43,833 bases of DNA, taken from NCBI GenBank assembly GCA_052055015.1, contig JBQJIT010000043.1; one strand, written 5' to 3'. Positions 1,412-40,765 of the stretch are shown here, piece after piece. How positions within the stretch are numbered: the first letter of the stretch is position 1; every line of letters starts with the position of its first letter. The position numbers and the translations under genes are program-made. Origin of the DNA: Malassezia furfur. Its lineage: Eukaryota. Below the pieces are notes generated by a model, which was not told the origin of the DNA, made no database searches, and saw only the letters and a list, made by a program, of their open reading frames with translations.

Positions 1412-1487
1412 CGTCGGGGCCCACGAAGCGCGCCCATGTGGAGGGGGCGCCCGCAAAAGTTTTCCGGGGGGACCTTTTTTTGTGACG

Positions 1488-2972
1488 ATGGCCGACGCAC
1501 CGCGCGCGCCACGCATCCAGAAGCTCGTGCTCGATGCGGCCCCGCTCTTGACGCAGGCCAAGATTGCTGGGCTTGCAGAGAAGTACTTTATCCCACCTAC
1601 AGTCCTTGCAGAGCTGCGTGACGTCCGCGCGCGCGAATACCTTGAGCATCTGCACACCACCGGGCAGATCGACCTCGAGGTGCGCGAGCCCGGCGCGGAG
1701 GCGATGCGTAAGAGTACGTCACCCCCCTCACACCCAGTGATCGACTTTGCGAAGCAGACAGGCGACTACGCCGTGCTCTCAGCGCCCGACATGCACGTGC
1801 TCGCACTGACCTATGCGCTCGAAGTCGAGACGCACGGCAACTGGCGCATCCGCGACACGGTTGGTGGCAAGGTGCGTCGCACCCAACTCACACAGACGGG
1901 ACAGCAGCAGCATGAAGCGCGCAAACTCGAAGAGAAGCACGCGTCCGCCGTCGCGCCGCAAGAGCCGCAAGCATCGGCCCCGGCCGCGGCACCGCCCAAG
2001 ACACGCGACACTCGGGCGCCGCCGCCGCGCGCCGCCCAACCGGACGACGGCGCCGACGATGATGGATTCGTCACCGTCGATGCACAGCACGGGTTCCAGC
2101 CGAACGCCCAGCCGCCGCCGCCCCGTGCGCCGACGCGCGTCGACGACGACGAGCAGGAAGAAGACGACGAGGACGTCGGCGGCGAGTGGATTACGCCGAG
2201 CAACATTACGCAGCACAAGAACAAGGCGCTCGGGCTCGTTGTCGAAGAGTCAGAGACCATCCCGGAGAAGCCGAGCGGCCGGCGCCGGCGCGGCAAGAAG
2301 AAGGGCAGCAGCGGCGGCGCTTTGTCGGTCGCCTGCATGACGGGCGACTTTGCCGTGCAGAACGTGCTGCTCCAGATGGGGCTGCGACTCGTGAGCGTCG
2401 ACGGTGTACGCATTGAGCGCGTCAAGAGCTGGGTGCTCCGCTGCCACGCTTGCTATAAGTACGTTGACCGCGCACACTGACCCAGAATCTGCAAGGATCC
2501 CGAGCGCAAGTTTTGCCCGTCGTGCGGCAACGCGACGCTGATCCGCACCTCGGTTAGCACTGGCGCCCCGGGGCACGACGGTGACCAGGGCCTCCGGGTG
2601 CACCTCAAGCCCAACTTTGAATACCACAACCGCGGCACGATCTATTCGCTGCCGATGCCCCGTGCAGGCAGCGCGTCCGGTGGGCGGCCGAGCGGGAGCA
2701 GCCGCAACGCCAAGACCGGCGTGCCGATTCTACGGGAAGACCAGCCCGAGTGGCAGCGCGGCGTCGCCAAGGACAAGCTGCGCAAGCAGAAGGAGGAACG
2801 CGCGCTGCAGCGCTCGTTGGACCAGGGCCAGGACTCGCTCTCGGCGCGCTACGCGGACCCCGACTGGCTCCCGGACCTTCTTACGGGTAAGCACACGGCC
2901 ACCGGCCCTGACCTGCCGGCGCTTGGCATCGGACGCAAGAACCCCAACGAACGCAGACGGCGGAGAAAGTAG
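1488..2972 (+). CDS. NOB1: 20S pre-rRNA D-site endonuclease Nob1 (PIN domain plus Zn ribbon); introns about 1714-1737, 1872-1895, 2459-2485
   Basis: LVLDAAPLL, FAKQTGDYAVLSAPD, GEWITPSNI, TGDFAVQNVLLQMGL and RCHACYK|ICKDPERKFCPSCGN, the last restored by removing the 27-nt intron 2459-2485. The first donor is ambiguous (1708 or 1714). Confidence 0.95.
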
Positions 2973-2980
2973 GTTGATTT

Positions 2981-3284
2981 CTATACGCGCTCCGTGCTCC
3001 AGAAGCTATTCGTCGCAAACTCAGGCGGCGCTTCTGGATTGTGCTGGGTGAGTCGGCGTGCACACATACCGCTTGCCCGCGTGTGCTTCCTGTAATGCGG
3101 TAGTCCCGGCGCATCATCATACGGTCCCAGTTGTCGAGGTTATGGCGCAGAGGCTGGGTGAGTGCGCAAGACAAACCTTGCCGTCGTTGGCCAGACGCGA
3201 AACCGCGCTGTACCCGGTACCAGTGACCGCGAACAGCACGGTAATGATTCCCATCGGGATCACCGACAACAGGGGGACCGGCAT
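2981..3284 (-). CDS. NDUFA1: NADH:ubiquinone oxidoreductase MWFE/NDUFA1 accessory subunit; introns 3154-3176 (23 nt) and 3044-3069 (26 nt)
   Basis: Spliced product MPVPLLSVIPMGIITVLFAVTGTGYSAVSRLANDGK|PLRHNLDNWDRMMMRRDYRITGSTRGQA|HNPEAPPEFATNSFWSTERV*. N-terminal TM helix and D.WDR.MM.RD.R.TG motif fit fungal MWFE subunits. Confidence 0.88.
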
Positions 3285-3757
3285 CGTGAACGAGATAGAT
3301 GGAGCTGTCGGGCTGCGAAAATCGGTCACGTGATGGGCTTCGCGCCGCGGTGCACCAGGCATGCCGGTTGCGCACGGGCTTCGTATAGCGACGACGCGCA
3401 CCGTGAACGCGGATCGGACGGGCGCTGTATTGGTGGCTGTGTCTCTCGTGAAATTGGTGCCCGTCTTTATCCACGTCTGCTTTGTTCTACTTGACATGGC
3501 ACATCACATTGGTCGCGCACACGCGTGCAGACCTAGCCTCCTAGACAGTCCATGTATTCGCGACCGGGCGCTGCCTGTACGCTTTTGATACTCTCAGTCC
3601 TTCGCCATTGTCCTCTGTCACTGTCGGTGCACGGCCGCGCCTACGACCGATAAACGCCGTACGCCTATGTGGAGTAGCGAGAGACATGGGGCGAGAACGA
3701 ATTTTGGATTTCGGGTGTGCCCGTGCAGGCCTCGCGCTTCCGTTGTGATTCATCGCG

Positions 3758-5028
3758 ATGTCTGATACACAGAACACAGTTCCCGACTTTGAGCACGTTG
3801 AAACGGCCATGTACAAGCAGGAGCCGCCGAAACCGGGTGAGGATTTCCTTCTCGCGATTGTCGGGGCTGGCAACATCAACTTCGGCTCGGACGAAGGGCC
3901 ATGGAACCACTCGTTCCGCCTCGAGCAGTGCGTGTCTCATCGCTGACGATCAGTAAACTCGGCCCACGTCTCAAGGTCGTGGCGTTGATCGACCCTGCCA
4001 GGGAACGTGCGGAGGAAGTGCTTGAAGCCAAGCGTAATTCGTTCGTGGTCAGTGCATACAAGGACACGGTGATCTATGCCGACCTTGAAGACTACCTCAA
4101 AGCGATTACTCCGGAAACCCGCCCGCATGCCATCTGGGTGGGCTCGCCGCCCGCATTCCGAGGTCGCCTGGAGAAAGGACGTAACCTCGAGGTCCTCGTG
4201 GCCGACAACCTGCCGAAGACGGCCATGTTCATCGAGAAGCCTGTCTCCACCGGCCCCGTCGAGGAAGCTGCTGAGGTTGCTCACGACATCAAGAAACGCG
4301 GAAACCTCGTTTCGGTCGGCTACATGCTTCGCTACCTCAAGGTCGTCCAAAAGATGAAGCAGATTATTGACGAGAACAACCTGGTCGTGACGGCAGTGAA
4401 TGGTCGTTACGTCATGGCCTACGAGTATCTTTCCAAGTCGTGGTGGTGGAACAAGAAGCAGAGCCTTGGCCCTGTCATTGAGCAAGCGACGCATTTCTGT
4501 GACCTGGCTCGCTACTTTGGCGGCGAAGTCGACCTGAGCACCGTGTTCGCCCATTCGCTCGAGCACAATGAGCCGGCAGGAAAGCTACGCAAGTTGAACG
4601 TCGATGAAGAGGCCATCCCACCCGAGGACCGCATCCCTCGCGTGACCAGCGCGACCTGGAAGTACGAATCAGGCGCCGTTGGGTCCCTGATGCACTGTGT
4701 TGCACTGCACGGCCAAGACTTCTTTACGCATCTTGATGTCTTTGCGGACGGATACTACCTCCGCCTCGTCGACCCGTACCATGCACCGACCCTCTATGTT
4801 CGGCGCCCTGGTGATGACCACGAGGAGACATACCGCTACTCGGAAGATGACCCATTCTTCTCCGAGGTGTCCAACTTGGTGGACTGCATCGAGCAAGGCC
4901 CGAATGCGGCGCCAATCCTGTCGACCTATGAAGATGCAGTGAAGACATATGCACTGACTTGGGCTATTCGCCTCGCCAGCGAGAAGAAAGCGGACGAGTT
5001 GGCCAAGCTTGCGAAAATCCAGATTTAG
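3758..5028 (+). CDS. Gfo/Idh/MocA-family NAD(P)-dependent oxidoreductase, copy 1 (no presequence); intron 3928-3953
   Basis: Rossmann IVGAGNINFG, family motif FIEKPVS, VGYMLRY and GPVIEQATHFCDL. The 26-nt intron joins RLEH|KLGPRL. Confidence 0.9.
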
Positions 5029-5314
5029 GTACGCATCGCAAAAGTCTTAGGGACATGCAAGTAGGGATGCACTCGGTCGGACTAGCTAAGGGATAGTAAC
5101 AAAGTGATTACTTTTTGAGTAGCGGCGCTGGCACTATCCGAGGTTCTGTGCTGGGATTTGTGGCAACAATGTAGTCAGCGTGACGCCACGTTGCTTGAAG
5201 GCGCTGAAGCCCGATGCTGGATTGCCGTGACTCTCAGGCGGTTTGCCAAAATGCGCCCAATTCCGCACATGTGGAGGTCTGTGACAGCCCGACGTTGGTC
5301 CTATCCTGGTCACC

Positions 5315-5792
5315 ATGTCCACCGCGACGACGGTTGATATCGACCCCAACCTCCTCAAATCTCTCCGGGATTTCCGCCTATCCAAGCGCTCTTCCAAAAA
5401 TGCAGCGCTAGTTGCCAAGATCGACAAGAAAAAGCTGCTTCTCGAAGAGGAAGAATTGCTTGATCCGATCACACCCGATGACCTCGCAGAGGAACTTCCG
5501 GAGCATTCCCCGCGCTTTGTCGTACTAAGTTACGAACTGCGTCATTCCGACGGTCGTGTCTCCTACGTACGTCTGGTCCACTCACCCGACAGCCGCTGGT
5601 TCTCATCTAGTACGCGTTAACCACACTGACATCAGCTGGGCACCCGCATCTGCCAGTATGGAGCTGTCGACACTGTACGCGTCGGCGCTATCCAACTTCT
5701 CGACCCATGCGGATGTCGGCAAGGTCATTGATATCCGTGATGGCCAACTGTCGAATGCTGTGCTGGACGAGCGGCTTGGCGCGCGCCGGTAA
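5315..5792 (+). CDS. AIM7: Glia maturation factor (ADF-H family Arp2/3 debranching factor, Aim7/GMF); introns 5567-5592 and 5610-5635
   Basis: DDLAEELPEHSPRFVVLSYELRHSDGRVSY|PLVLIY|WAP..MELSTLYASA is the GMF signature. It needs a 17-nt micro-exon at 5593-5609. Confidence 0.9.
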
Positions 5793-5796
5793 ACCC

Positions 5797-6051
5797 CTAT
5801 TTTGCAAAGGTATGCTCTGGAGGCAGGATGTCCTTTGGGTGCTTGCTTTCAAAATGGGATGAGAGTACTTTGTAGGACTAGGTAAGACGCTGCAAAGTTG
5901 CACGCACGGGACTAGGGACTCTGCAAACTGGGCAGACAAACTTTAGACCCTGCTCACGCGCCTTGCCCAGCTGAGACTTCCCGCCCTGCTGGGAAGCAGC
6001 ACGTTTCTGAGCGGCGGCCTGTGCTTGCGCCTTGGCATGCCCACGCACCAT
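5797..6051 (-). CDS. Small ZNF706/4F5-like C2H2 zinc-finger protein; intron 5878-5907
   Basis: MVRGHAKAQAQAAAQKRAASQQGGKSQLGKAREQGLKFVCPVCRVPSP|SYKVLSSHFESKHPKDILPPEHTFAK*, with CxxC...HFESKHPK typical of ZNF706. Confidence 0.88.
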
Positions 6052-6441
6052 GGTGGAATGCACGAGCACAGCCACGTGACCGACAAGCTATGCCAAGCAG
6101 ACCAAGACAGGCTTATCCGATCACCAATCTATCGCACGGACGGGCGTATGGTCCGTGGGACCAAACAATCCCGTCATTCCTGCGATACTTTCGCGCCAGG
6201 GTATAGCACTAGGGCATGTCACCCCCCAAAGTTTTGACATTCTACTGTGTAGCTGACGGTGCGATAAGTGATAGGCAAAATTCACGCGGCATTTTTGGCT
6301 GGGGACGTGATCGATTGGAGCGGATTTGTGCTGCAATTGTTCCGAGGAGTTCGTCGCAATAAAAATGTGCCGATGGGGATGCACAGGCGTTGTTTAAATA
6401 AACTACTCCCGAGTTTACTCGCATCGTTACGCTCATCCATC

Positions 6442-7822
6442 ATGAGTCTCCTGGCCACCAAATCGATGCGTGTTGGCCTCTCGCAGCCAATTCGTCGTGC
6501 ATGCCTGTCGACCATGGCCGCAAGGCCCAGCGTCGCGATCCGTGCACCGCCGAAGCGCTTTGCAACCGCACGATACTCGACCAAGCCCGAGTCCACGGCC
6601 GATTTCGACCCGAACGCGGTCACTGCGATGGACAAGCAGGAGCCCCCGGCGCCGGGTGAAGACTTCCGTGTGGCTATTGTTGGTGCTGGTAACATCAACT
6701 TCGGCTCCGATGAGGGTCCATGGAACCACTCGTTCCGTCTTGAGCAGTACGTGCAAACGAAGCTGACCGTGCAGCAAGCTGGGTCCCCGCCTGAAAGTCA
6801 CCGCGCTCATTGATCCCAGTGAGCAGCGTGCGAACCAGGTTCTCAAAACCAAGTGCGAATCCTTCGTCGTAAGCGCGTACAAGGACACGGTGGTCTATCC
6901 GACCGCCGAGGCGTACATTGCGGCGCTCAAGCCCGAGGAGCGGCCGCACGCAATCTGGGTTGGTTCGCCGCCTGCATTCCGTGGGCGTCTGGAACAGGGT
7001 CGTGACCTGGAAGAGGTGCTGACCAAGGGACTACCCGGTGTCCCGCTATTCGTTGAGAAGCCCGTTTCGACAGGTCCCGTGGACCAGGCGTTCACGGTAG
7101 CGCACAAGCTCGAGAAGACCAAGACGCTTGTGTCGGTGGGCTACATGCTCCGCTACCTCAAGGTCGTGCAGAAGATGAAGCAAATCCTCGAGGAGAACAA
7201 CCTCAACGTCATGGGGATCAACGCTCGCTACATTATGGCCTACGAGCACACGGCTAAGCTCGACTGGTGGGACAAGTCGCAGACGTTGGGCCCGATCGTC
7301 GAGCAGGCGACGCACTTCTGCGACCTGGCGCGCTACTTTGGCGGTGAGGCCGACCTGGGCACGGTCATGGCCCACTCGGTGGAGTACTTTGAGCCCGCGG
7401 GTAAACTGAGTAAGATCCCCGTGGACGAGTCGCGTGTCGCGCCCGAGAACCGCATCCCGCGTGTTACCTGTGCGACGTGGAAGTTTGACTCGGGTGCCGT
7501 TGGCTCGCTGACGCACGCTGTTGCGCTCCAGGGACACAACTACTCGACCGAGCTTGACGTGTATGCCGATGGACACATGCTCCGTTTGGTGGACCCTTAC
7601 AACGCACCGATCCTTTACTTCCGTCGTCCTGGTGACGATCATGAAGAGATTGTGCGCTACCAGAACGACGACCCCTTCTTCTCGGAAGTGTCCAACTTTA
7701 TCGACTGCATCGAGAAGGGCCCGGGTGCCTCCCCCATTCTTTCGAGCTACGAGGATGCGGTCAAGACGTACGCGTTGACATGGGCCATCCGCGAGGCCAG
7801 CGAGCGCAGCATCAAGAAGTAG
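6442..7822 (+). CDS. Gfo/Idh/MocA-family oxidoreductase, copy 2, with a predicted mitochondrial presequence; intron 6747-6774
   Basis: Same motifs as copy 1 (IVGAGNINFGSDEGPWNHSFRLEH|K, FVEKPVS, EQATHFCDL) and an intron at the identical codon position. About 48 aa acid-free Arg/Ser/Ala-rich N-terminal extension ending ..ARYS. Confidence 0.9.
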
Positions 7823-7896
7823 ACTGTTCCTCCGTAGCGCCCCCAAGGAACGCGCACGTGACCACATCCACTTGTCCACGGCGCGCTCGACGCACG

Positions 7897-9547
7897 ATGG
7901 AGCAGCGAGCAAACCGGGCGCGGAATGCGGTGCTGGCTGGCCAAGCCGCCGAATCACACGCAGGATGGGGAAGCGCATGGAATAGTGAAAATCTGCCACC
8001 GCTACCGTACGACGGACGCGATACTGCGGCGCGCGGCGCGCGTGCCTCCGATGGGCGGTCGCCGCGCGCGCCGGCGCTCGACGAGGACGTGTACGCCGAT
8101 GCGGCGCGTGCGCCAAAGCGGCCATCGGCAGAGGATCCTGGGCCATCAAAGCGTGCGCGGGATAGCGAGGTACCACGCGCGCTGGACGCGGTACTTGGCC
8201 GTCGGGACGCCTACGTCGACGAGACGCTCGAAGACATCCGTGAGCTGCACCCGCAGTTCGTGGGCGACACGGGTGCGAACGAAGACCACCTAGCGCTGGA
8301 TGACCAGCTGTCATTCTCGTTACCGCAGCGCTACGATGCCGAGGCACGAACGGGCCTTGCTGACGCTGCGGCTGTGGCCGCTGCCATGCACTCGGATGCC
8401 GACCACTCTGAGTCTGTCCCGCGGCGGCTACAGCCGCGCGGCGAGCACGCACAGCGCAAGGTAAAGCCTGGACAGGAAAAGACGCGTGCGGCGTTTGTGG
8501 CCGCGCATGCCGGGCAGACGTACGAGCAGATGGTGTTGGAGCGTGCCTACTCGAGCGACCGGTTGTTTTGGCTCAAAGAGGCGTACGGTCTGACGTGGCG
8601 CACCGGGCGGTGGAGCCAAGAAGAGGAGGATCTGGCGACGGCTGCACTGGACAAGTTCTGCAAGCACTACAAACTGTCGTCCGCGGCGCTTGACGAGCTG
8701 ATCTGGCACCGCAAACCAGAGCAGAAGCACATGCACGAGGAGCTGTGGAAGCACATTGCGTTGTCGGTCGGTACGCGCCCCAACTATGCGGTGCGCATGC
8801 ACATCAAGTCGATGCGTAAGAATGTCGTGCGCGGGGGCAATTGGACGCCGGCCGAGGTCGATGCGCTGGCAGCGGCCGTAGCCGAGCTGGGCCACCAGTG
8901 GGAAAAGATTGGCGAGCGGCTCGGGCGGTCCGGAAATGTGTGCAAGCACTACTGGCGCGAGCAGATGCAGGGCAGCCCCGCGGCACACGCGCCGCAGGGT
9001 GCCTTCCGCCCCGAGGAGGAGGCAGCGCTGCGGCAGGCGGTGCTGGCGTGCTGCGAAAAGGTTGGGTGCGACCCCGATGGCCCAAACCTGCCCTGGACGC
9101 TAATTCACGAGCAGCTCGGCCCGTCGACGCGCCGGATAAGCGTGTTGTCGCGCAAGTGGCGTGGCATGCTCAGCGCGGAACGGCGCAACTCGGAGGACCA
9201 AAACACGCGCTGGTACGCACCGCATGACGACCATGTGCTTTTGCGCCGTGTGCGGGCGCAGCGCAAAGGCAACGCGGCCGACATCGAATTCGACAAGCTA
9301 GCGTCGGACGATTGGCAATGGCCGACGTACGTGGTGAAGAAGCACTGGACGGGCATGCTGCGCAAGCGTGTCCCGCCGCAGTTTTCGGGCGATCTGGACG
9401 GTAAGCGGGCCCTAGCTAACCGCAGCACTGCTGGACCTGCTCGAGAGTCGTGTGCCATCCCCGGACGAGTACAAAATGTTGGCGTCGGGGCGGCGGCCTT
9501 CCAAGTCGTCGGACGACGCCGCGTACGCCGCCGGCGGCCCACAATAG
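7897..9547 (+). CDS. Myb/SANT-repeat DNA-binding protein, Reb1/Nsi1/TTF-I/DMTF1-like; intron 9401-9425
   Basis: GRWSQEE, LWKHIALSVGTR, GNWTPAEVDAL..ELGHQWEKIGERLGRSGNVCKHYWR and GAFRPEEEAAL..LPWTLI are Myb repeats. Canonical intron GTAAGC..GCTAAC.CGCAG moves the stop to TAG 9545-9547. Confidence 0.75.
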
Positions 9548-10638: not shown

Positions 10639-10668
10639 GATGGTCGTGACCGAAACCGCCCGCGCGGC

Positions 10669-10674
10669 CACGTG
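10669..10674. promoter_or_regulatory. CACGTG E-box in the 88-bp CLC1/MRPL23 divergent promoter
   Basis: GGCCACGTGGCC palindrome between two divergent ATGs; the same hexamer recurs in most divergent promoters here. Confidence 0.6.
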
Positions 10675-10726
10675 GCCCACCCGGCCGAGGGTGCGACAGG
10701 GGACGTCGTCGCCTCTTTGTTCTTCC

Positions 10727-12029: not shown

Positions 12030-12036
12030 GGTGGAG

Positions 12037-12042
12037 CACGTG
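12037..12042. promoter_or_regulatory. CACGTG E-box in the 68-bp CCDC97-like/SMC5 divergent promoter
   Basis: AGCACGTGCC between ATGs at 12029 (-) and 12098 (+). Confidence 0.55.
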
Positions 12043-12097
12043 CCTTCGAGGGGTGCTAAATTGTGTGCGCCACGCGGTGTTGGATTCGCGTCGCGCC

Positions 12098-16365: not shown

Positions 16366-16627
16366 CACCGCTTCTGACCGCAGAATGAACGGACCATAGC
16401 TCGTCATGCCGACACACACCCACTAGGCTCCTCTACGCAACAACGTGTAGCTCGGCCTGGTCCTCTGTGCAGCGCACACGCGACGCACACGCAGCGCAAG
16501 CCCAGCACACGCGCGGCGCACACGTGGCGCGTGCGGGGAACAACAGGATCGCGTGCGGATTTCGATTCATTACTAGGTACAACAAAGCGCAATAGGGTGT
16601 GGAAGTATGCAGCTCTCCTGTCGACGC

Positions 16628-17287: not shown

Positions 17288-17573
17288 CCTCCCACAAGTC
17301 GCCTCGCTCCCACCGAATGCTCACGGCGTTGGTGATGCCAGCCAATCGAGGAAGGGATTGAGCCGATTCCGCGTCTCCGCTGAGAGGTTCCTTTTGCCAC
17401 TCTGCAGACACATGCATAAGCAGCCACGTGTGCTTTGACTAAAAAAAAACGCCGCGCGCCGCGCGACGGGCGCGAGGCGGCGGACAGTGGGAAAAAAAGT
17501 GCATGAATGTGGTCATTAACAGAGAGAAGCTCGCTGCAGAACAAAGAATTGGCTATGGTCGCCAGCGATCCGC

Positions 17574-19492: not shown

Positions 19493-19686
19493 GTTGTATT
19501 AGGTTCTCAATATCCAGCACACGCAAAGAAGACCTCTGGCGTGGTGGCAGATGGCGGAAGAGCCTACTTCGAGCGCCGGGCAGTCTTTTTTTTGTCTCTG
19601 ACTAATGACGTAGTACGCCAAGTCATGTGACCTGAACGGTTCTTCCACTCCCACTAGCGAAGTCGTGTTGGACACTATCGTGGGCC

Positions 19687-21349: not shown

Positions 21350-21385
21350 GTTGGCACTTGCGCAAGCGTGGGTGCCACTTTCCTC

Positions 21386-21391
21386 CACGTG
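21386..21391. promoter_or_regulatory. CACGTG E-box in the 82-bp SDS22/CAP2 divergent promoter
   Basis: TCCACGTGGT near the centre of the gap, at the junction of a direct repeat GGTGCCACTTTCCTCCAC x2. Confidence 0.6.
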
Positions 21392-21431
21392 GTGCCACTT
21401 TCCTCCACCAACGGAACCTGGACACCCCGCG

Positions 21432-22450
21432 ATGAGCGCGACTGTCGAAGACCCCCTGTCCCTGTCACTCGACCTCTTGCGTCGGCTTCCACCCGCGAAT
21501 GTCACGAAGAATGTGCAACATCTTATTAATATGCTCCCGGACCATGCCGATGACCTTGCATCGAGTGTTGACCAGCCGCTGACATTACGCATTGACCAGT
21601 CCAAGGAGGGTGCTGGCCGAGAGTTTCTGTGTTGCGACTACAACCGCGACGGCGAGAGCTGGCGTAGCTGGATCAGTAATACCTGGGTGCCTCCCCTGAA
21701 GGATGGTGACGAAGAATCGGCGCCTGTCCCCACCGGCAAACTGAGGGAATTGGAATTGCACGCAAACGATGCTTTCGAGACGTATCGGAAGCTGTAAGTA
21801 TTTTGTATACTGACGCCTAGCTACTATGAGACTGGTTACACAAGCACATATCTCTGGGATCTTGGAGCTGACTCACCCGGTGATGTACCAGCTAACTTTG
21901 CCGGGGTTGTGTTGTTCAAGAAAGGTATGCACGACACGCGACTGACATCAGACCTCGAAGGCTCGGCAGATGACACAGCCAAGGGGACGTTCGGGTCGTG
22001 GGATTCTATCCATGTCTTTGAAGTCGCTACCGTGCCATCTAGTGGCTCGGCTGGCTCAGCCACGACCGTCAAGAGTGCCAAATACAAGCTGTCGAGCACG
22101 GTAATGTTGACTCTGAACAGGCACGACGGCGATGCCATTGCTCGCAAGAACGTGGACCTCAGTGGGAGTTTGAGCCGACAGGTGTGTTCCACTCTACTCA
22201 CCCAGACGGAAGAAACCATGAAAGTGACCGATGTCACCAATCATATCATCAATCTGGGTCGAATCATTGAGGATGTCGAGAGCAAGATCCGCAACCAACT
22301 ACAGGTAGGTCGCGCTTGTCTGACTTCCAGGAAATCTATTTTGGAAAGACACACGACATCGTGGAACAGTTGCGCAGTCTCGAAGACTTGGAAGCGAGCC
22401 GAAATGCCAAGAAACTTCAAGAGGAGCTTGTGGCAGGTTGGGAGCGCTAG
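21432..22450 (+). CDS. CAP2: F-actin capping protein beta subunit; introns 21794-21820, 21925-21951, 22182-22205, 22305-22330
   Basis: LDLLRRLPP, SSVDQPL, FLCCDYNRDGESWRSW, AFETYRKL|YYE, FAGVVLFKK, GSWDSIHVFEV, HIINLGRIIEDVE and Q|EIYFGKT; stop TAG 22448-22450. Confidence 0.95.
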
Positions 22451-22800
22451 GTGCCTGAGCTTGTCCGCAGGGTCCTGCAGTGTGATCTGCACGGTCTACA
22501 TTCCCCACATGGGCACGTCGCTGAAGCAACTACTAAACTTCGGGGCGCTGCACGTGGATTCGGGACCCTAATACGGCAAGTGGTGCAGCTGCTGCTAGGG
22601 ACAAGGCTCGTCGACGCATTTCCGTAGCGGGAATTACATAATCATGCTGCTTGCTTTTGGTGAATGGCTGACAACGCGTGTTGGATTTCCGGGCTTTGTG
22701 TAACGCGTGGGTTCTGCAGGACTTCGCACACACCCTGAACTCGAGCCGAGTTGTTTTCATCCCACCGCGAACCTTGATCTATTCAGATTATTCCGGCAGG

Positions 22801-24455
<1,655 letters not shown>

Positions 24456-24744
24456 AACACCTACGCACGGACGCTATAGAAAGGTTGCAACGTCGATTGT
24501 GTAGATGCCTGCGCTGCAGTACCCCAGTAGCTCCGGTCCCATATTCTTTCCCCTAACAGTTTTTCTCCGTCCCTCCTCCACGTTGCTTCGCCCGATCTAC
24601 CCAGTGTTTGATCCCACTGGTCCGGCGCATCCACATAGCCGGACTTTTTGCTGATTCAGCCGCGCACATGCATAGGAACTTACCCCCTTCCCCACGCTTG
24701 GTCCCTCGGCGCATCCGGCTGAGATCCCACGTCCGTCCGCAACG

Positions 24745-25794: not shown

Positions 25795-25815
25795 TTTCGC
25801 TTACTTCCGTGTTAT

Positions 25816-26470: not shown

Positions 26471-26477
26471 GCTTCTC

Positions 26478-26483
26478 CACGTG
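26478..26483. promoter_or_regulatory. CACGTG E-box in the 78-bp CENP-K-like/MDM31 divergent promoter
   Basis: CTCCACGTGGAG 12-bp palindrome between divergent ATGs. Confidence 0.55.
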
Positions 26484-26548
26484 GAGGTAGTTGGCCCGTG
26501 TGGAGACTTCGCTGGTGCAAATTGCCAGGAACTTGACCGGAGCGGGCG

Positions 26549-29437: not shown

Positions 29438-29499
29438 GGTTACCTTCTGGAACCTCCACACGGCGTGGGCGCTCGTTTCTCGTTTCGCCTTTGTGGAGT

Positions 29500-30229
29500 A
29501 TGAGCGGATTGGAAAGTGCGTAGCGAGGCAAACACTGACGACAGAGTCGCTCTTCCAGCTAAAAGTACGCAAAGAACTCTCACCCAGTTCACGGCGAAGT
29601 CGCTTCAGCGCCAAGCAAACAAAGCCAGTCGTGACGAAGTCTCAGAAAAGGCGAAGTTGAAAAAGGTGAGGCTCCCAGGTCTAACCCAGGCGCTTGCGCA
29701 AGATAACGTCGAGGGTGCTCGGATCTATGCCGCGAATTCGATCAGGAAGAAGAATGAGTCGCTTAACTTGCTTCGCCTCAGCAGCCGGATTGATGCGGTT
29801 GCTAGCCGTGTAGAAACGGCTGTGGCAATGCGCCAAGTGACAGGAAATATGACCTCGGTGGTCAAAGGTCTGGACCGCGCCATGCAAACCATGGACCTAG
29901 AGCGTGTAAGTATCTCTGCTGATCCAAAGATCTCTATGGTGATGGACAAGTTTGAGAATCAACTCGAAGACGTCGATGTCCAAACGTCCTACATGGAATC
30001 GACTATGGGATCCACTACTGCCACTGGCATGCCTCAAGACCAAGTGGATACGCTCATGCAGCAGGTTGCTGACCAGAATGGAATCGAACTCAACCACCAG
30101 CTAGGCGAAGCGCGACTGGAAGGCAAAGTGGCCGAGCTGCCGACGGGCGAAGTTGACAAGCAAAAGGCCCAGGCAGATACCGACGAAGCGCTTGCACAGA
30201 GACTACGTGCTCTTCGTCCCGCTACATAG
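29500..30229 (+). CDS. DID2: ESCRT-III-associated protein Did2/Vps46/CHMP1; introns 29516-29544, 29565-29587, 29666-29689, 29906-29929
   Basis: MSGLEK|SLFQLK|FTAKSLQRQA, ARIYAANSIRKKNE..LLRLSSRIDAVASRV.TA, ISMVMDKFE, PQDQVDTLMQQVAD and a C-terminal MIM1 element DEALAQRLRALR. Confidence 0.95.
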
Positions 30230-30403
30230 ACCTACATATCACCACATGTATCTGTCGCACCTCGTACGCGCTGCGACGACCACACATAGGCGGTCTCCCG
30301 GCGGCTCCCCGCAGTCTTGGCACGCGATACGCGTCGGTCGCTGAGTCAGCAAAATAAAGCACACTAGGAACGCGTGCGGCTTTTTTGGATCGAGCCATAC
30401 GCG

Positions 30404-32836: not shown

Positions 32837-33675
32837 ATGCCGACGGCGCTGCAGGTGCGCGTCGCGCCGCACATCACGCTGGATGTGCGCGTACATGTGC
32901 CGAAATGTGCAAACCGGGGTGTGGTGGTGATCGGGCATCGTACGTAGAAAGGGTCTGATCGCAGCATATGCGTACGTTGGTGGATCGCAGGACAACCATG
33001 TCGTCCAAGCTGTTGCGCACACCTTTGTGCGGTTCGGCCTGCATGCCGTGACATTTGATACGCGCGGTGTCGGAGCGAGTGGGGGAAGGATTTCTTGGAC
33101 TATGTGCCCTGAAAGCGAGGACTATCAGGTGCGTTTAGGTGCTTATCGAGGCGGTGGTCGATGCGGCACTTACCGAAATTGGGCCGCCCAGCGCCGGTGC
33201 GGAGCTTTACCTTTGTGTAGGTACTAGTGACTGACGCAGGGATACAGTGCCGGTGCAATACAGTACGTGGTCTGCTGATCTTTAGGGCATCGACTGCGCG
33301 CGCCCCGCGCACGGGCGGATGGAGCGAGGTACCTGTACGCTACGTACTCCTCTCGTACCCTCTCGGCGTACGGTGGGTTTTGACCTCTTTCCACGGCAGC
33401 TTCTTCCAACGTGCGTTGGAGCAGATGGTGCGATCGTGCGCTGAGGGCGATACACGCGCCTTGCTGGTCACGACGACACGCGACCAATTCACGTCTGCCT
33501 CGGTACGTCGCCTACATCCTGACACCAGACATATGCATCGTGGGTCGAATCCCTCTCTGCTCCCAATATCACGGCGCGCTCGCTCGACGAGGACCACTTC
33601 TTTTTGACCAAATCGGCGCTTGACGCACTGACCAACGTCCTGGACGCGTGGTGGGCCAACCTCCACCCGTGTTAA
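32837..33675 (+). CDS. Small alpha/beta-hydrolase-fold protein; introns 32940-32964, 33129-33150, 33217-33239, 33263-33285, 33503-33528
   Basis: Spliced product VVIGH|PYAYVGGSQDNHVV..TFDTRGVGASGGRISWT..ESEDYQ|..LYLC|GYSAGAIQ|..YVLLSYP..RDQFT..|..DEDHFF. A putative Ser-Asp-His triad (GYSAG, DQF, DHF) is intact. Confidence 0.85.
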
Positions 33676-33751
33676 GGCCCCGTCGGCCGACAAAGTTCAA
33701 AATACGAGACCAACACTCGGCATTCCGCGGCAGTGCAGTTTCGGGGACGCC

Positions 33752-36700
33752 ATGGCGCAGGCTGGTGAGGAGACACCGGCGGACCTTGTTGCCTTGGTCC
33801 TGGCTGCAGAAGATGGTGTAGTGAGTGAGGCTGCAATTGCAGCTGTCCTTAGTGAGCGGCTGGCGCACTCGCACCCCTATACCTGGGCATCGGCAACGAC
33901 ACTGGTGTCCGTCAATCCCTACCGCGACCAAAGCGGGATGGATGCCGAGGCGGCAGAGCACGCCTCGGTATACCATGACCTCGCAGCGGTCGCGCCGCAT
34001 CCATGTGCGCTTGCCGCACGCGCATACCACCGCATGCTGCGGACGCAGCAGTCGCAGTCGATCGTGTACCATGGCATGACCGATGCGGGTAAGACGCATG
34101 CGATGCAGCTGGTCACCGAGCACCTCTTGACGCTCGCTTCGAGCAATACACCGCAAGAGACACACCTCGCGGACCAGGTGCGGTGTGCGCAGCATGTGCT
34201 GGGCGCGTTCGGCACAGCGCGGACCAGCTTCTCGGAGCGTTCGTCACGGCATGCGACCTACTTCGAGCTGCATTTTGGTCCCGAGGGCCGCCTGTGCGGT
34301 GCGAAGCTACTAACGTTTGGCCTCGACAAGCACCGACTGCATGACAAGACGCCTGGCGAGCGCGTGTATGCCATCTTCTACCAGCTGCTGGCCGGTGCTA
34401 CGCACGACGAGCGGGTGGCGTACCACCTGGGCGACCTGACTGCGCCGGCGATGCTCCCACCCGGAACGTCTCCGTCGCGTGAGGATGCGCGTGCGTGTGA
34501 CTGGACGCGTAGTGCGTTGACCGCACTCGGTCTCAAGGAGAAACACGTCCAGGGCCTATTCCGTGTGCTGGCGGCGCTCCTGCACCTCTGTGATCTCGAC
34601 TTTGGCGATCCGCAAGTCGAGGGGCAGGCGGCGCACATCACGACGCCGCGTGCGATGGAGCGCGCCGCTGACGTGCTGCAAGTGCGTGCCGAGGACTTGG
34701 CGCAGTGCCTTGTGATGGACACGCGGTATCTCGGCAACGAACGCGTGACGCAGATGCTCAACGCGCGTGCCGCGCGGCGGCAGCGCGATTCGCTTGTGGA
34801 AAACTTGTATGCGGTGCTGTTCGCGTTTGTGGTCGAGGTGGTGAACCAGAAGCTTGCCCCGCACCAGGCGGCCCATCCGCTCCACATTGTCCAGCTCGAC
34901 ACGCCCGGGTTTGTGACGCGTGCCGAGGCGGGCTTGCCACGGGCGGGCCACTTTGACGACCTGATGAAGAACTACGTCGCAGAGCTGCTTCGCCACATCG
35001 ATCTGCGCTCCGTGCTTGATGAGAGTGCGCCGCGCAACGCGCAACTACGTGCCGACGGGCTGAGTGTGCCGCCCTCGGCCAAGTATGCCGACGTCATGTC
35101 GCTGCTGCGTGGCGGTCCCGTGCCGCTGGATGCCGATGCGCCCGCGCCCGGCGGGCTGATGGGCGACTACGACCGCGCGTTCCACCTTGTGCTCGATGGC
35201 CTGCGCAAAGAAAGCGACGACCGTGCGCTCGTGTCCGACATGGACGTCTACTGCACGAACCGTGCGTTCAGTCCGAGCGACCCGCGGCGCGGCACGCTGT
35301 CGTTTGACATCAACCACACGCTCGGCCCGTGCGCGTACACGGTGACGCAGCACCAACGCTCCGAGCTGGACTTGCTGCCCACGCAGCAGTACCAACTGCT
35401 GCGCACGTCTGGCAGCACGTTTATCACCCGGCTGTTTGCGGGCCCTGGCATGACGATCGAGTCGCACCTCGCGGACCACCAGGTGGTGCTGCGCGCACAG
35501 GTTGCGACGCATCCCCTGCGCCGTCCGACGCCGCTTGACGGGCGTACGGTGAACTGGGACGCAGGGCGTGTGCAGAGCGTCTCGCAGCAGCTCGACACGG
35601 CGCTGCTGTCACTGGCGCACAACGTGCAAAGTGCCGATACGTGCTGGCGCGTGGTGTGCATGCGCCCCAACGACCTGTCGCAGCCCAACGCCTTTGACAC
35701 GAAGCGCGTCACGCGGCAGATCAAGGCGCTGGCGCTGCCGCAGTTGCTGCGCCGCTTGCAGCACAGCCATATGGCGCCCGTGTCGTTCGAGGCGTTCTGT
35801 GCGCGCTACAACCCGCTGCTCCACGCGACGCTCGGCGATGCGGTGATGGCCGCGGCAGACGCGCGTGGTGTACTTCTCGAGTTTGCGTACGCCCAAGGCT
35901 GGACGGAGCCGAACGAAATGGTGCTGGGCCAGACGCAGGTCTGCTTCTCGTACACGGCCTACTTCACGCTCGAAGACATGCTGCGCCACGCGACCGGCGA
36001 GCGCAGCGTCGGCGCTGCGGCGCTGGCGGCGCGGCCAAAGCGTACGACGCTCGGTGCATCCCGGCAAGACGCGCTGCCGCGCTACTCGGCGTACTCGTCC
36101 GCGTCCGGCACGCAGCCGTCGAGCCAAGCGCACGGCAGCGACCCGCTCTCGCACTCGTACACCGAGCCGGGATACAGCGACGTGCATGCGCCTGCGACGT
36201 ACGACGCAGGCTATGCACCGATGGATCTGCAGGCCAACGGCTCCAACGTGTCGCTGCTGCCCAGCGATGAGAAGCCGCTGCCACAGGAGCCCGCATACCC
36301 TTCCGAGGCGGTGCCGCTCACGTCGTGGGCGCCGGCGCCCGGCGAGGTGTCGTTTGAGAAGGACGCGGTTTTGGCCCCGACCGGGGTCGAGACGGTGCCC
36401 ACGACGCGGCTGCGGCGGTGGTGGATGCGGCTGACATGGGCGCTGACGTGGTACATCCCCAACTCGGTGCTGTCCAACGTCGGGGGCATGAAGCGGCCCG
36501 ACGTGCGGATGGCGTGGCGCGAGAAGCTGAGCATCTGTCTGCTGATCTTTTTCCTGTGTGCCGTGGTGCTGTTCTACATTATCGGCGTCGGGCAGCTGCT
36601 GTGCCCCGACTACAACAAGGCATACAACCAGGGCCAGCTGAGCGGGCACAGCACAGGCAAGTCGTTCTACGTCGCGGTGGCGGGCAAGGTGTACGACATC

Positions 36701-39536
36701 ACCAAGTTTTACAAGATGGACCACTCGGACCTCTCGGCGATGCCCGTGACGGACGACGTGATGATGGAGCTGGCCGGGCAGGACCTCACGCCGTACTTCC
36801 CCGTGCCGCTGTCGGTTGGGTGCCCCGGGCTGGTATCCGACGACACCCTGCAGCTCTCCACCAACGAGAACCTCACCGCGACGATCGGGCAAGCGATCCA
36901 CACGTCGGGTGCGGCACAGACCTACCAGAACACCAAGCTGGACAGCCCTTCGTGGTACTTCCAGCGGTTCTTGCCCAAGATGCAGCAGTACTACAAAGGC
37001 ATCTACGTGTACGACCCGAAGCAGATCGCCACCGACGGGTCGTGGCGCAAGTGGGCCACGGTGGATGGCAAGTTGTACGACCTGACCAACTACCTGTACA
37101 CCATCAACCTGCACAGTGGCGACGATGCGTACAGCTTCCTCGACAGCGATGTGACCGACTTGTTTGATGCGCAGGCCGGCGGCGATATCACGCAAGACTA
37201 CGCCAACGTGCTCAACGGCATGTCCTCCGAGCAGCGCACACAGACGCAGCAGTGCCTGGACAATGTGTTTTATGTGGGCAAGAGTGATTTCCGCCTGTCG
37301 GCCAAGTGCGAGGCGCAAAACTACATCCTGCTCTCCTTCTCCATTCTCATCTTCCTCACCATCTTTTCCAAGTTTGTGAGCGCGCTGCAGCTCGTGCGCA
37401 AGCCGACACCCGAGCAGCAAGACCGCTTTGTGATCTGCCACATCCCGTGCTATACCGAGGGCGAAGATTCGCTGCGCAAGACGATCGACTCGCTCACCAC
37501 GCAAGAGTACGATGACAAGCGCAAACTGCTGTTTATCGTGTGTGACGGCATGATCACCGGCAGCGGCAATGACCGTCCGACGCCGCGCATCGTGCTCGAC
37601 ATCCTTGGCGTGGACAGCAAGGTGGACCCTGAGCCGCTGCCCTTCCACTCGGTCGCCGAGGGATCCAAGCAGCTCAACTACGCCAAGGTGTACTCGGGCC
37701 TATACGAGTGCGAAGGCAACGTCGTACCCTTCGTGGTTGTCGTCAAGGTCGGGCGGCCCTCGGAGCGCACGCGCCCGGGCAACCGCGGAAAGCGCGACAC
37801 GCAGGTGATGCTGATGCGCTACCTGAACCGCGTGCACTTTGACGAGCCCATGTCCCCGCTTGAGCTCGAGCTGTACCACCACATGAAGAACGTGATCGGA
37901 ATCGACCCAAGCTTCTACGAGTACATCCTGATGGTCGATGCCGATACGGGCATCAAGTCGGACGGCATGAACCGCCTTGTGGCTGCCGCCGTACACGACC
38001 ACTCGATCATCGCGGTGTGTGGCGAGACGCTGCTTGAGAACGAGGAGACGAGCTGGTGGACGATGGTACAGGTGTACGAGTACTACATCTCGCACAACCT
38101 CGCCAAGGCGTTCGAGTCACTGTTTGGTAGCGTGACGTGTTTGCCTGGGTGTTTCTCCATGTACCGCATCCGCTCCGCCGACAAGGGCCAGCCACTGTTT
38201 GTTTCGAACCGCATCATCGAGGACTACGCCGAGAACCAGGTGGACACGCTGCACAAAAAGAACCTTTTTGCGCTCGGCGAGGACCGCTACTTGACCACGC
38301 TGCTGCTCAAGCACTTCCCCTCGTACCGCACGCGCTTCCGCGCGGATGCTTCGGCGACGACCGTTGCGCCCGACAAGTTTTCCGTGCTGCTCTCGCAGCG
38401 CCGGCGTTGGATCAACTCCACCGTGCACAACCTCGCTGAGCTCGTCATGATGGATGGCCTGTGTGGCTTCTGCTTGGTACGTTGCGCCGACTGACCCAGT
38501 TCTCGATGCGCTTCATCGTGTTCATTGACCTGCTCGGCACAATCATCTTGCCCGCGACCGCCGTGTACATGGTGTACCTCATTGTCACGGTAGCGACCGG
38601 CGAGGCGGCGATACCGTACATTGCGCTCGCAATGATTGGCGCCGTGTACGGTCTGCAGGCCATCATCTTCCTGCTGAAGCGCCAGTGGCAATACATCGGA
38701 TGGATGGTCATCTACGTACGTTTCCCCTGCACTGACCCCAGCTGCTCGCCTACCCGCTGTACAGTTTCCTGCTGCCCATCTACTCCTTCTGGCACATGGA
38801 CGACTTCTCGTGGGGTAACACGCGCGTCGTCGTCGGCGAAAAGGGCAACATGAAGGTGGTTGCCGGCACGGACGACGAGCCGTTCGACGAGTCAATGATC
38901 CCGCGCAAGCGCTTCAGCGAATACCAACAGGAGATTGCCGAGTCGGGTGATGCGCAGCGCACGGTGCCGCTGTATGCGCCGTCGCGCGCGACACGGACCA
39001 TGACGCCGGATCCCGAGTACGCCGACTACTTCCAGCACACCAATCTGCTCAGCAAGAAACCGCGCGAATCACACGTCTCGACGCCGACGGCGCGCGCGTC
39101 GATGCCGAGCATGTACGGCATGCCACCGTCGCAGACGACATCGATGTACGGCATGCCAATGGGCATGCCGCCGATGATGTCGATGTACGGCATGCCGCCT
39201 AACATGTCAATGTATGGCATGCCAATGGGTATGCCACCGACCATGTCGATGTATGGCATGCCCCCCGCACCCTTTGCCACGCCGGGCACCGGCGAGCGGC
39301 CGTGGTCGAGCGCTCCGACGGACGCCTCGGTGCTTCCGGTGGTCGCCACGTCGGACCCGACTGAGCAGGAGCTGCGCGCCGCGGTGCAGACCTTCCTGGC
39401 TGCCCAGCCGAGCCTGATGCACATCACCAAGCGCGACGTGCGTGACGCACTGAGTGCGTCAATGCCGAATGCCGACCTCGGCAAGCGCCGCACCCAGATC
39501 AATATGATGATCGACGAGCTACTGTCGGGCAACTAG
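33752..39536 (+). CDS. Chitin synthase with N-terminal myosin motor-like domain (class V/VII type), cytochrome-b5-like domain and C-terminal DEK domain; introns 38477-38499 and 38716-38741
   Basis: Myosin-like [104 protein letters not shown]-like [10 protein letters not shown]. Confidence 0.96.
39108..39263 (+). repeat. Five SMYGMP peptide repeats in the chitin synthase C-terminal tail
   Basis: [56 protein letters not shown] core ATGTA(C/T)GGCATGCC occurs five times. Confidence 0.9.
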
Positions 39537-39578
39537 GCACGTCGGTCTGTAGCATACTCGCAGTTTTTTTTTTCCCCC

Positions 39579-40712
39579 CTACAATGCACGCTGTAGCCAC
39601 GCACGCAGTGCGTGCGCACTCTCGCTCTGCGCCGAGCCTGCGTTGGGCTCACTGGGCGCAACGGCCGACGGCGGCGCCGGTGCCAGCACATCGTATCGTT
39701 GGCCGCGTAGGCCCTGCACGGCATCGTGCAGCGTGGCGTCGTCACTCTCGAGCGTATGTACTTCGATGCCGCTCACGATGCCCCGTTCAATGCGTAGCGT
39801 CATGGCAAGGCGCACGCCGTCCCACGGTGTGTCGTCGGTGCGTACGAGCGTCTCCATGTCCGGCGATGAGCCATACACCCAGTCCCACGACTGCAGATCA
39901 TCGTATGCGCTGCGCACGGTCTGTTCCACGCCATTTACGTGCTGCGACGCACTCAGATCGTGCTCGTCGACGAGGGTCGTGTGCGTCGCGCCATACTGCG
40001 TCGCAAACGCATCGCGGATCGCCTCAAACACGGCCTGCGGCGTGAGCTGCGCGGCACGCTCAGGGAACGTCGAGCGCAGATTGGCAACCGGCGACGACAC
40101 CGAGTCGACGGCACGGCTGGTGATTTTTGCGCCCGACGTGCGACGTAGGAGGCGCATACGGCCCAAGTCTGCGTCGAGGAGCAGCGTGCCGTGGTGGTAC
40201 GCGTGCTGACTTGAGATTTTGTACGCGCTGCCGGACACTTTGCGGCGCGCGTCCGGCGACGGTGTATGGGCGTCCCGCGCATACACATACAGGTCGTTGC
40301 GGTCGTTCACCTGCACGGGTGGCTCGCCGAATCGCGTCGGGAGCGACACCGGCGCCTGGCGCAGTGCGCGTGCGACGAGCTCAGTGTGGGTATTCCGCGC
40401 AAACGCACTACGTGCGACATAAAAGCAAAAGTTGATGTTGCCCTCGTCGTGGTACACGGTCCCCCCGCCACTGCGGCGGCGCACGACAGGGACGCGCGCG
40501 CGCCGCATGGCGCGTGCGTCAAGTTCGCTCCAGATATTTTGGTTACGTCCGACCACGACGCACGGCGCGTTTCGGTACAGAAAACACACGGGCGTAGTGG
40601 GACGCAATCGCAGCAGGTAGTCCTCCCATGCCAGGTTGAAGTAGGGGTTCAGCGTGCGCGACCACACGACCTGCGCGGCGCCTGCCCCGTGCGCCGCTGC
40701 TGCGCCGGTCAT
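39579..40712 (-). CDS. AIM22: Lipoate-protein ligase A family protein (Aim22/Lip3)
   Basis: NPYFNLAWEDYL, YRNAPCVVVGRNQNIWSE, RRRSGGGTVYHDEGNINF, NDRND, KVSGSAYK, YHHGTLL, SVSSPVANL and SWDWVYGSSP. Confidence 0.92.
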   Translation of the reverse strand: MTGAAAAHGAGAAQVVWSRTLNPYFNLAWEDYLLRLRPTTPVCFLYRNAPCVVVGRNQNIWSELDARAMRRARVPVVRRRSGGGTVYHDEGNINFCFYVARSAFARNTHTELVARALRQAPVSLPTRFGEPPVQVNDRNDLYVYARDAHTPSPDARRKVSGSAYKISSQHAYHHGTLLLDADLGRMRLLRRTSGAKITSRAVDSVSSPVANLRSTFPERAAQLTPQAVFEAIRDAFATQYGATHTTLVDEHDLSASQHVNGVEQTVRSAYDDLQSWDWVYGSSPDMETLVRTDDTPWDGVRLAMTLRIERGIVSGIEVHTLESDDATLHDAVQGLRGQRYDVLAPAPPSAVAPSEPNAGSAQSESAHALRAWLQRAL

Positions 40713-40725
40713 CGAGGCGTGGGCG

Positions 40726-40731
40726 CACGTG
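40726..40731. promoter_or_regulatory. CACGTG E-box in the 53-bp AIM22/YCG1 divergent promoter
   Basis: GCACGTGAC (GTCACGTG on the minus strand, a Cbf1-type site) between ATGs at 40712 (-) and 40766 (+). Confidence 0.6.
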
Positions 40732-40765
40732 ACGTACGCGTCGCGCGGTGTCACTTGCGTTGGCC

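Follow-up and report, generated by a model that had tools for sequence, protein, structure and literature searches.

The question raised by this 43,833-bp stretch of Malassezia furfur DNA (contig JBQJIT010000043.1; hereafter the window) is what the palindromic E-box CACGTG does in the very short gaps between its genes. An earlier note on the sequence had proposed that the hexamer marks almost every minimal bidirectional promoter and acts as a general promoter-specifying site for a basic helix-loop-helix (bHLH) protein. We conclude that CACGTG is almost certainly a genuine promoter element of a known type that is in wide use in these compact gaps. It belongs to a small promoter vocabulary that also includes CTCCAC(A) and poly(dA:dT), and is not a universal core element. 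The promoter copies are probably conserved sites of a bHLH protein, presumably of the bHLH-leucine-zipper kind, that are used at about one third to one half of the promoters whatever the function of the gene, in the manner of the general regulatory factor Cbf1.

The gaps were defined by our own gene models, for which Pfam scans of open frames were combined with six-frame reading and a self-written splice-aware parser. The parser was a strict short-intron filter, genes G, S, T, V and AA were corrected by hand, and the protein domain scans took single exons only. In this way 30 protein-coding genes, denoted here by letters, were modelled with 38,208 bp of coding sequence (CDS; 87% of the window) and 1,534 bp of introns in DNA of 54-68% GC. 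When the models were checked, six of seven sequences (five of six single-exon genes) were identical to public proteins and gene O had no exact match. The 90% cluster mates of the matched sequences belonged to Malassezia furfur and M. brasiliensis.

Exactly ten divergent gene pairs were present in the window. Their gaps, measured from ATG to ATG, contained the following E-boxes, with the strand of each flanking gene in brackets:

B/C gap, 1412-1487, 76 bp: CATGTG in the variant CATGTGGAG (1435..1443), between the genes of a DnaJ-domain protein (-) and NOB1 (+).
D/E gap, 3285-3757, 473 bp: CACGTG, E-box GGTCACGTGAT (3327..3332), between the MWFE complex I subunit (-) and a GFO/IDH/MocA oxidoreductase (+), with 42 nt to the ATG of MWFE and 425 nt to that of the oxidoreductase.
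G/H gap, 6052-6372, 321 bp: CACGTG, E-box CACGTGAC (6073..6078), between the small zinc-finger protein G (-) and a second oxidoreductase paralogue (+), 21 nt from the G ATG.
J/K gap, 10639-10726, 88 bp: CACGTG (10669..10674) in the 12-nt palindrome GGCCACGTGGCC, between clathrin light chain (-) and mitoribosomal uL13 (+).
L/M gap, 12030-12097, 68 bp: CACGTG (12037..12042) directly adjoined by GTGGAG, between a CCDC97-like protein (-) and an SMC-family ATPase (+), 7 nt from the L ATG.
P/Q gap, 19493-19686, 194 bp: CATGTG in the variant GTCATGTGAC (19622..19631), between an ABC-F ATPase (-) and a small protein (+).
R/S gap, 21350-21431, 82 bp: CACGTG (21386..21391) in the centre of the gap, between an LRR protein (-) and F-actin capping protein beta (+).
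V/W gap, 26471-26548, 78 bp: CACGTG (26478..26483) in the palindrome CTCCACGTGGAG (26475-26486), between a coiled-coil protein (-) and MDM31 (+), 7 nt from the V ATG.
X/Y gap, 29438-29499, 62 bp: neither CACGTG nor CATGTG, between AIM19 and DID2.
CC/DD gap, 40713-40765, 53 bp: CACGTG, E-box CACGTGAC (40726..40731), between lipoate-protein ligase (-) and condensin Cnd3 (+), 13 nt from one ATG and 34 nt from the other.

CACGTG was thus found in seven of the ten gaps, CATGTG in two and neither in one, the AIM19/DID2 gap, which agrees with the count and all coordinates given earlier. Five of the exact-match gaps indeed measure only 53-88 bp; the D/E and G/H gaps are far longer than minimal. Some of the protein names are our assumptions. 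We take gene G to be ZNF706-like without a tool match, gene M to be SMC5 from its N-terminal sequence and gene R to be Sds22-like; the ABC-F ATPase is presumably Arb1-like and the small protein Q, which has no Pfam match, presumably mitoribosomal mL41. The coiled-coil protein V gave a weak match to CENP-K.

Exact and variant E-boxes were also located in tandem gaps, and one exact copy was located between convergent genes:

7855..7860, 74-bp tandem gap: E-box CACGTGAC, between the stop of oxidoreductase 2 (7822) and the ATG of a Myb-domain gene (7897).
17425..17430, 286-bp O/P tandem gap: CACGTG, upstream of the NF-YB-like histone-fold gene O (-).
22551..22556, 350-bp S/T tandem gap: CACGTG, 244 nt before the ATG (22801) of the UDP-glucose pyrophosphorylase gene.
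5266..5276, tandem gap: variant CACATGTGGAG, about 42 nt upstream of the ATG (5315) of an ADF-H/cofilin-domain gene.
24665..24670, T/U tandem gap: variant CACATG, upstream of a mitochondrial carrier gene (ATG 24745).
30243..30248, Y/Z tandem gap: variant CACATG.
16521-16526, longest convergent gap (262 bp): CACGTG.

Three tandem gaps at gene 5' ends therefore carry the exact motif. The sites at 7855 and 17425, which the earlier note had listed, are both real; its list lacked 22551, which is intergenic because the capping-protein beta gene stops at 22450 after a 26-nt intron. The spacing of 20-45 bp to an ATG stated in that note applies to 7855 and 5266, whereas the distance is 137 nt for 17425, about 75 nt for 24665 and 244 nt for 22551.

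The distribution of the 18 exact copies was then compared between the parts of the window. Ten lie in the gaps at gene 5' ends (5' gaps), seven in CDS and one, at 16521, in a convergent gap. The ten promoter copies are spread over ten different gaps, and the exact motif is present in 10 of the 19 5' gaps compared with one of ten convergent gaps. The 5' gaps amount to 3,255 bp, 7.4% of the window, yet they hold 10 of the 18 copies (binomial P=1.3e-7), which corresponds to a density of 3.07/kb against 0.20/kb elsewhere (15.6-fold). For the seven copies in the 1,495 bp of divergent gaps a P of 1.2e-6 was obtained.

Chance, or an artefact of the composition of GC-rich intergenic DNA, would be suggested by the total of 18 copies, which lies below the dinucleotide-shuffle mean of 25.4, and by the fact that the hexamer had been picked after looking. 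The low total means that CACGTG is not in excess over the whole window and that its excess is local. For the 5' gaps an order-1 Markov model predicted 1.7 copies and 10 were observed (Poisson P=1.3e-5), while mononucleotide shuffles gave a mean of 0.95 and a maximum of 6 copies. Since the hexamer was chosen after looking, all 2069 strand-merged hexamers were ranked by their 5'-gap enrichment in an unbiased scan. AAAAAA came first, CACGTG second and CTCCAC third, and CACGTG retained a Bonferroni-corrected P of about 2e-4 for the 2069 hexamers. The enrichment was replicated in two other loci, where the conservation in orthologous gaps has a P of 3e-6 (see below), and chance as the explanation is hardly credible. 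The non-random occurrence in the gaps claimed in the earlier note is thereby borne out. The top-ranked 8-mer was CACGTGAC, with four copies in 5' gaps and none elsewhere. The CACATG/CATGTG variant was more weakly enriched, with 8 copies in 5' gaps and 19 elsewhere (P=4.7e-4, uncorrected). TATAWA was absent from all 29 intergenic gaps of the window.

Relatives of the locus were sought in a metagenome scan whose query was the last exon of the UDP-glucose pyrophosphorylase gene, and two long syntenic loci were obtained, L001 (GC 51%) and L003 (GC 58.5%). In BLAST comparisons both align to the window between 12.9 and 34.4 kb with 65-83% identity, in the coding parts only. The tblastn searches with the model proteins showed the same gene order from M to Z in L001 and from M to BB in L003. 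The borders of their intervals are generous tblastn limits and not gene models, which works against enrichment. Four E-box gaps of the window are covered by the synteny; the sites at 3327, 6073, 7855, 10669, 12037 and 40726 and the variants at 1435 and 5266 lie outside. The counterparts of the four covered sites were as follows:

17425: CACGTG kept in the O/P interval of both relatives, L001 (3719) and L003 (4467).
21386: CACGTG kept in L001 (7977) and L003 (8323).
22551: CACGTG kept in L001 (9194) and L003 (9336).
26478: two CACGTG in the V/W interval of L003 (13172, 13192), none in that of L001.

Seven of the eight orthologous intervals thus keep CACGTG, with chance odds of 0.03-0.22 for each interval and P=3e-6 for seven or more, and these promoter sites are conserved in related species. 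L001 contains only three CACGTG in 21 kb, and all three are in 5' intervals (18.7% of the locus; P=0.0065), namely O/P, R/S and S/T, each a gap with a copy in the window. L003 contains eight, and its 5' intervals, which make up 12.3% of the locus, account for six of them (P=7.8e-5): one each in O/P, R/S, S/T and Z/AA, and two in V/W. Its two remaining copies are in coding parts of genes V and Z. In the ranking of 2050 hexamers of L003, CTCCAC was first and CACGTG second, and in the AT-richer L001 AAAAAA was first and CACGTG 17th. The exact motif was found in 5 of 11 5' intervals of L003 and in 3 of 9 of L001.

Four orthologous gaps were aligned with MAFFT, which served only to show that the flanks have diverged. 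The alignments had 48-60% column identity and the motifs did not fall into common columns. Since the motif was kept while its flanks became unalignable, the hexamer was held as its surroundings turned over. In the R/S gap the flanks of the site at 21386 are a direct repeat of GTGCCACTTTCCTCCAC (21372-21411) whose copies are separated by GTG only, and the CACGTG was therefore formed by the junction of the duplication. The copies outside the 5' gaps behaved differently from the promoter copies, as none of the four at 16521, 26850, 28035 and 29254 had a counterpart in L001 or L003. The copy at 16521 was considered as the driver of an unannotated RNA gene, which was rejected, as neither a tRNA nor an Rfam match was found and both L001 and L003 lack the site. 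A chance copy is probable here.

For the variants the outcome was mixed. In the P/Q gap TCATGTGA or its reverse complement was kept in L001 (about 6012) and L003 (about 6578) and is thus present in all three species. For the variant at 24665 no counterpart was observed in L001 or L003, and it is therefore probably not functional. At 30243 a CACATG also occurs in the L003 interval and not in that of L001.

The position of the E-box relative to the transcript could be estimated for the UDP-glucose pyrophosphorylase gene. A further match of the scan, L002 (1-1945), is a spliced and polyadenylated transcript of this gene from a related species, with 116 nt before the ATG, a 3' untranslated region of about 300 nt and no E-box, and gives a rough guide to how long leaders are in this clade. 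The E-box of the three genomic loci is located 225-272 nt upstream of the ATG. The E-box-free leader of 116 nt therefore suggests that the E-box of this gene is located upstream of the transcript start. Deep conservation of this E-box was also considered and was rejected, as CACGTG was missing from the 2 kb upstream of the match in ten more distant loci of the same scan; judged from the loci compared, the site is restricted to this clade. CACGTG was absent from the whole length of four more distant eukaryotic loci (L009, L053, L057 and L065; 10-13 kb, GC 47-55%). The frequency of the hexamer clearly varies widely between lineages.

In the coding sequence CACGTG was depleted. When synonymous codons were shuffled within each gene 1,000 times, 15.5 +/- 3.3 copies were expected and 7 were observed (P=0.002), and CACGTG was the sole depleted hexamer among the 14 tested. 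This is a hint that stray copies in genes are harmful. In the same shuffle, strong over-representation was observed for GCATGC (42 against 24.5 expected) and TGCGCA (40 against 21.4), and CTCGAG (41 against 28.6) was also high.

The bases next to the core also differed between the promoter copies and the others. A purine adjoined the core in 14 of 20 half-sites in 5' gaps compared with 4 of 16 elsewhere (Fisher P=0.018). The flanking base of the 20 half-sites was A in 5, which gives the Cbf1-type TCACGTG, G in 9, C in 5 and T in 1, and at least two flank classes could be distinguished, CACGTGAC and CAYGTGGAG.

The distance to the start codon, which was used as a proxy for the spacing to the transcription start, was not fixed. 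The motif lies 7 to 244 nt from the nearest ATG and up to 425 nt from either ATG. At the R/S site it is 24 nt from the start codon of R in L003, 36 nt in the window and 77 nt in L001. In all seven divergent gaps the E-box is nearer to the ATG of the minus-strand gene (7-42 nt) than to that of the plus-strand gene (34-425 nt); this bias has a two-sided sign test P of about 0.016 and may be due to chance.

These data bear on the strongest form of the idea, in which a single CACGTG would be the core promoter-specifying element, necessary and sufficient for two-way initiation at nearly every divergent pair. The seven exact matches in ten divergent gaps, five of them in gaps of 53-88 bp, would fit with this, as would the lack of a TATA box in any gap and the central position of the motif in the R/S gap of all three species. 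However, equally short gaps do without the motif, such as X/Y with 62 bp, where it is missing in all three species, Z/AA with 27 bp and AA/BB with 76 bp. The exact motif occurs in just one of four divergent intervals of L001 and two of four of L003, its distance to an ATG spans 7-425 nt, and in the D/E and G/H gaps it is 300-425 nt away from the second gene, so that a two-way action is doubtful there. In addition, CTCCAC(A) and poly(A) are comparably enriched. We therefore consider this form quite unlikely. The claim that the E-box marks almost every promoter is contradicted by its presence in only 10 of 19 5' gaps of the window and by the still lower proportions in the two relatives, and a role as the core element does not agree with the variable ATG spacing and with a second motif whose enrichment is similar and which is also conserved in gaps lacking the E-box.

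This second promoter motif is CTCCAC(A)/GTGGAG, with sites including 21383-21388, 21403-21408 and 26475-26505, and in the X/Y gap it was found on its own:

29452..29460, X/Y (AIM19/DID2) gap: second motif CCTCCACA, in a gap without an E-box.

A part of the E-box signal could belong to this longer element, or to a composite CAYGTGGAG, with a reader that is not a bHLH protein, and some CACGTG could have arisen because CTCCAC ends in CAC. The high ranks of CTCCAC, third of 2069 hexamers in the window and first of 2050 in L003, would agree with this. CTCCAC overlaps or adjoins the E-boxes at 12037, 21386 and 26478 (CTCCACGTGGAG) and the variants at 1435 and 5268 (CATGTGGAG), the V/W interval of L001 keeps GTGGAG and not CACGTG, and the X/Y gaps of the window, L001 and L003 alike contain CTCCACA and no E-box. 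However, 5 of the 10 promoter E-boxes (3327, 6073, 7855, 10669 and 40726) have no adjoining CTCCAC, four of these sharing CACGTGAC, and the conserved O/P and S/T sites keep CACGTG without CTCCAC. The two motifs are therefore at least partly independent, and we regard an origin of part of the E-box signal in the CTCCAC element as very unlikely.

The genes next to the E-boxes are functionally mixed and belong to the cytoskeleton, chromosome structure, vesicle coats, carbohydrate metabolism and mitochondria, in line with the earlier description of them as unrelated. Instead of a constitutive chromatin opener, one or several pathway-specific bHLH regulators could be at work, such as a phosphate regulator of the Pho4/NUC-1 type, a repressor of the NUC-3 type or a sterol/hypoxia regulator of the SREBP type. 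The CACGTG core is common to several fungal bHLH proteins, among them NUC-1 and NUC-3 (PMC12506109), the heterogeneous flanks suggest more than one reader, and several neighbours of the sites (MWFE, uL13m, MDM31 and lipoate ligase) are mitochondrial. Against this stand the functional diversity of the genes served and the occurrence of the site in about half of the 5' gaps, which is far above a typical regulon. The depletion in CDS also points to a factor whose stray binding is costly. Pathway-specific regulation as the main role of the sites is, in our opinion, unlikely.

Taken together, the enrichment in promoters, the conservation between species, the avoidance in CDS, the use by unrelated genes and the TATA-less gaps with poly(dA:dT) make up the signature of a general regulatory factor. 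A general factor of the Cbf1 kind would work in the following way. A bHLH dimer would bind the palindrome, placed centrally in a very short gap without a TATA box, and would keep this gap free of nucleosomes. The transcription machinery could then load toward either side of the open gap. Stray CACGTG within genes would be selected against, since they would open cryptic promoters. The identity of the binding protein, the displacement of nucleosomes and the two-way action are inferred.

Several points weigh against a general factor of this kind. Nine of the 19 5' gaps have no exact CACGTG, the short X/Y, Z/AA and AA/BB gaps among them, and in L001, with only 3 of 9 intervals, poly(A) dominates. 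The flanks are heterogeneous, with the Cbf1-type TCACGTG in just 5 of 20 half-sites, and more than one bHLH protein may share the sites. In view of their overlap with CTCCAC/GTGGAG, some E-boxes may belong to a composite or a different site. For L, V and CC only 7-13 nt separate the motif from the ATG, so that it must be inside the transcribed leader of that gene, which is unusual for an upstream element. The statistics are based on one 44-kb window, two 21-kb relatives and our own gene models, the intervals of L001 and L003 being tblastn limits, and the P values for conservation assume neutral turnover, as the three species share ancestry.

Cbf1 is a bHLH-zipper dimer that binds a palindromic CACGTG-type site with the extended consensus RTCACRTG. 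This form fits with GTCACGTGAT at 3327 and with the conserved TCATGTGA at 19622. Per promoter, the window sites are far more frequent than those of Cbf1 in S. cerevisiae. According to Tsankov et al. (2010; PMC2897762), CACGTG sites of Cbf1 are nucleosome-depleted in most pre-duplication ascomycete yeasts, Cbf1 was proposed as the ancestral major factor, and its sites trade off with poly(dA:dT) between lineages of the Saccharomycotina. The window resembles this system, in which the site and poly(dA:dT) belong to a small group of anti-nucleosomal elements, in the CACGTG core at many unrelated promoters alongside poly(dA:dT) (PMC2897762). The reliance on the site also varies between lineages, as it does for Cbf1 in the Saccharomycotina, with L001 leaning on poly(A) and L003 and the window on the E-box; the difference between L001 and L003 resembles that trade-off. 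In contrast to the Saccharomycotina, the window, in which 87% of the DNA is coding and gaps measure 53-88 bp, is from a Malassezia-like basidiomycete, the site can be as near as 7-13 nt to a start codon and the T flank (TCACGTG) is present in only one quarter of the half-sites. Binding of Cbf1 in S. cerevisiae at the centromere element CDEI and at MET promoters is mentioned in PMC7025860. Unlike CDEI, the window sites have no centromere context and are found at ordinary gene promoters.

In Neurospora crassa the consensus is GCACGTG for NUC-1 and GGCACGTGA for NUC-3, and both act in the phosphate-starvation response, NUC-3 as a repressor (PMC12506109). For NUC-3, 1391 in vitro sites upstream of 1793 genes were described, some of them common to divergent pairs (PMC12506109). 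The window genes differ from these in having no evident link to phosphate control. In plants and animals, the G-box and the E-boxes of USF and Myc-Max are CACGTG sites read by bHLH or bZIP dimers, often near the transcription starts of housekeeping genes. These are other kingdoms with other proteins, and the analogy is a functional one only. No study linking Malassezia promoters with CACGTG was found in the literature searched, in which subscription journals were not covered; three papers mention both Malassezia and CACGTG, and judged from their titles and abstracts they are unrelated. In a term search of the M. sympodialis annotation paper the word promoter was absent from the text (PMC5389616). 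The class of mechanism is known; its use in a compact basidiomycete at one third to one half of the promoters, with signs of purging from CDS, appears undescribed in the literature searched.

Some further features of the window were observed. A CCAAT box in the context AGCCAATSGAGGAAG (17338-17352) is located upstream of the NF-YB-like gene O and is kept in the O/P intervals of all three species. This hints that gene O is under the control of the CCAAT-binding complex, possibly by autoregulation. The two GFO/IDH/MocA oxidoreductase paralogues with the 'ox_reductase_C' domain (3758-5028 and 6373-7822) are 1.3 kb apart, and the second starts with about 70 additional residues resembling a mitochondrial presequence. 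The gap upstream of each contains an E-box, yet near the divergent neighbour. The DnaJ-domain gene B has two plausible starts at 1411 and 1297, the resulting forms of 243 and 205 residues are both present among the public proteins, and the shorter start (1295-1300) is itself within a CATGTG.

The introns are 22-37 nt long (for example 1714-1737, 3154-3176, 29565-29587 and 38477-38499) with one exception of 44 nt (22876-22919). They have a GTAYGT-like 5' end, a CTNAC-type branch site 3-12 nt before the 3' end and a YAG 3' end. The stop codons of convergent genes are separated by only 8, 4 and 21 bp (2973-2980, 5793-5796 and 25795-25815); with stops 4-21 bp apart, the 3' untranslated regions must overlap the neighbour on the opposite strand. 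For M. sympodialis a mean intron of 30 bp, 0.58 genes/kb and 6.72 of 7.79 Mb of coding DNA were published (PMC5389616, Table 2), and the architecture of the window agrees with these figures.

Malassezia are medically relevant skin yeasts with genomes that are among the most compact of the fungi, and their promoter architecture is essentially undescribed. The E-box, CTCCAC(A) and poly(dA:dT) provide a first promoter vocabulary for this clade, and the idea of a general factor of the Cbf1 type is extended from the ascomycete yeasts to a basidiomycete. With a single defined site, the natural divergent gaps of 53-88 bp are handy for tests of one factor acting on two genes and as compact expression parts. 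Going further, we tentatively consider it possible that one E-box-binding bHLH protein is the dominant promoter-opening factor in Malassezia, that a single palindrome in a gap of 53-88 bp, at times just 7 nt away from a start codon, organises two divergent and probably overlapping transcription units, and that the factor is so potent that selection has purged about half of the expected copies from CDS. If this is true, these gaps would be the smallest of the natural bidirectional RNA polymerase II promoters that one known site defines.

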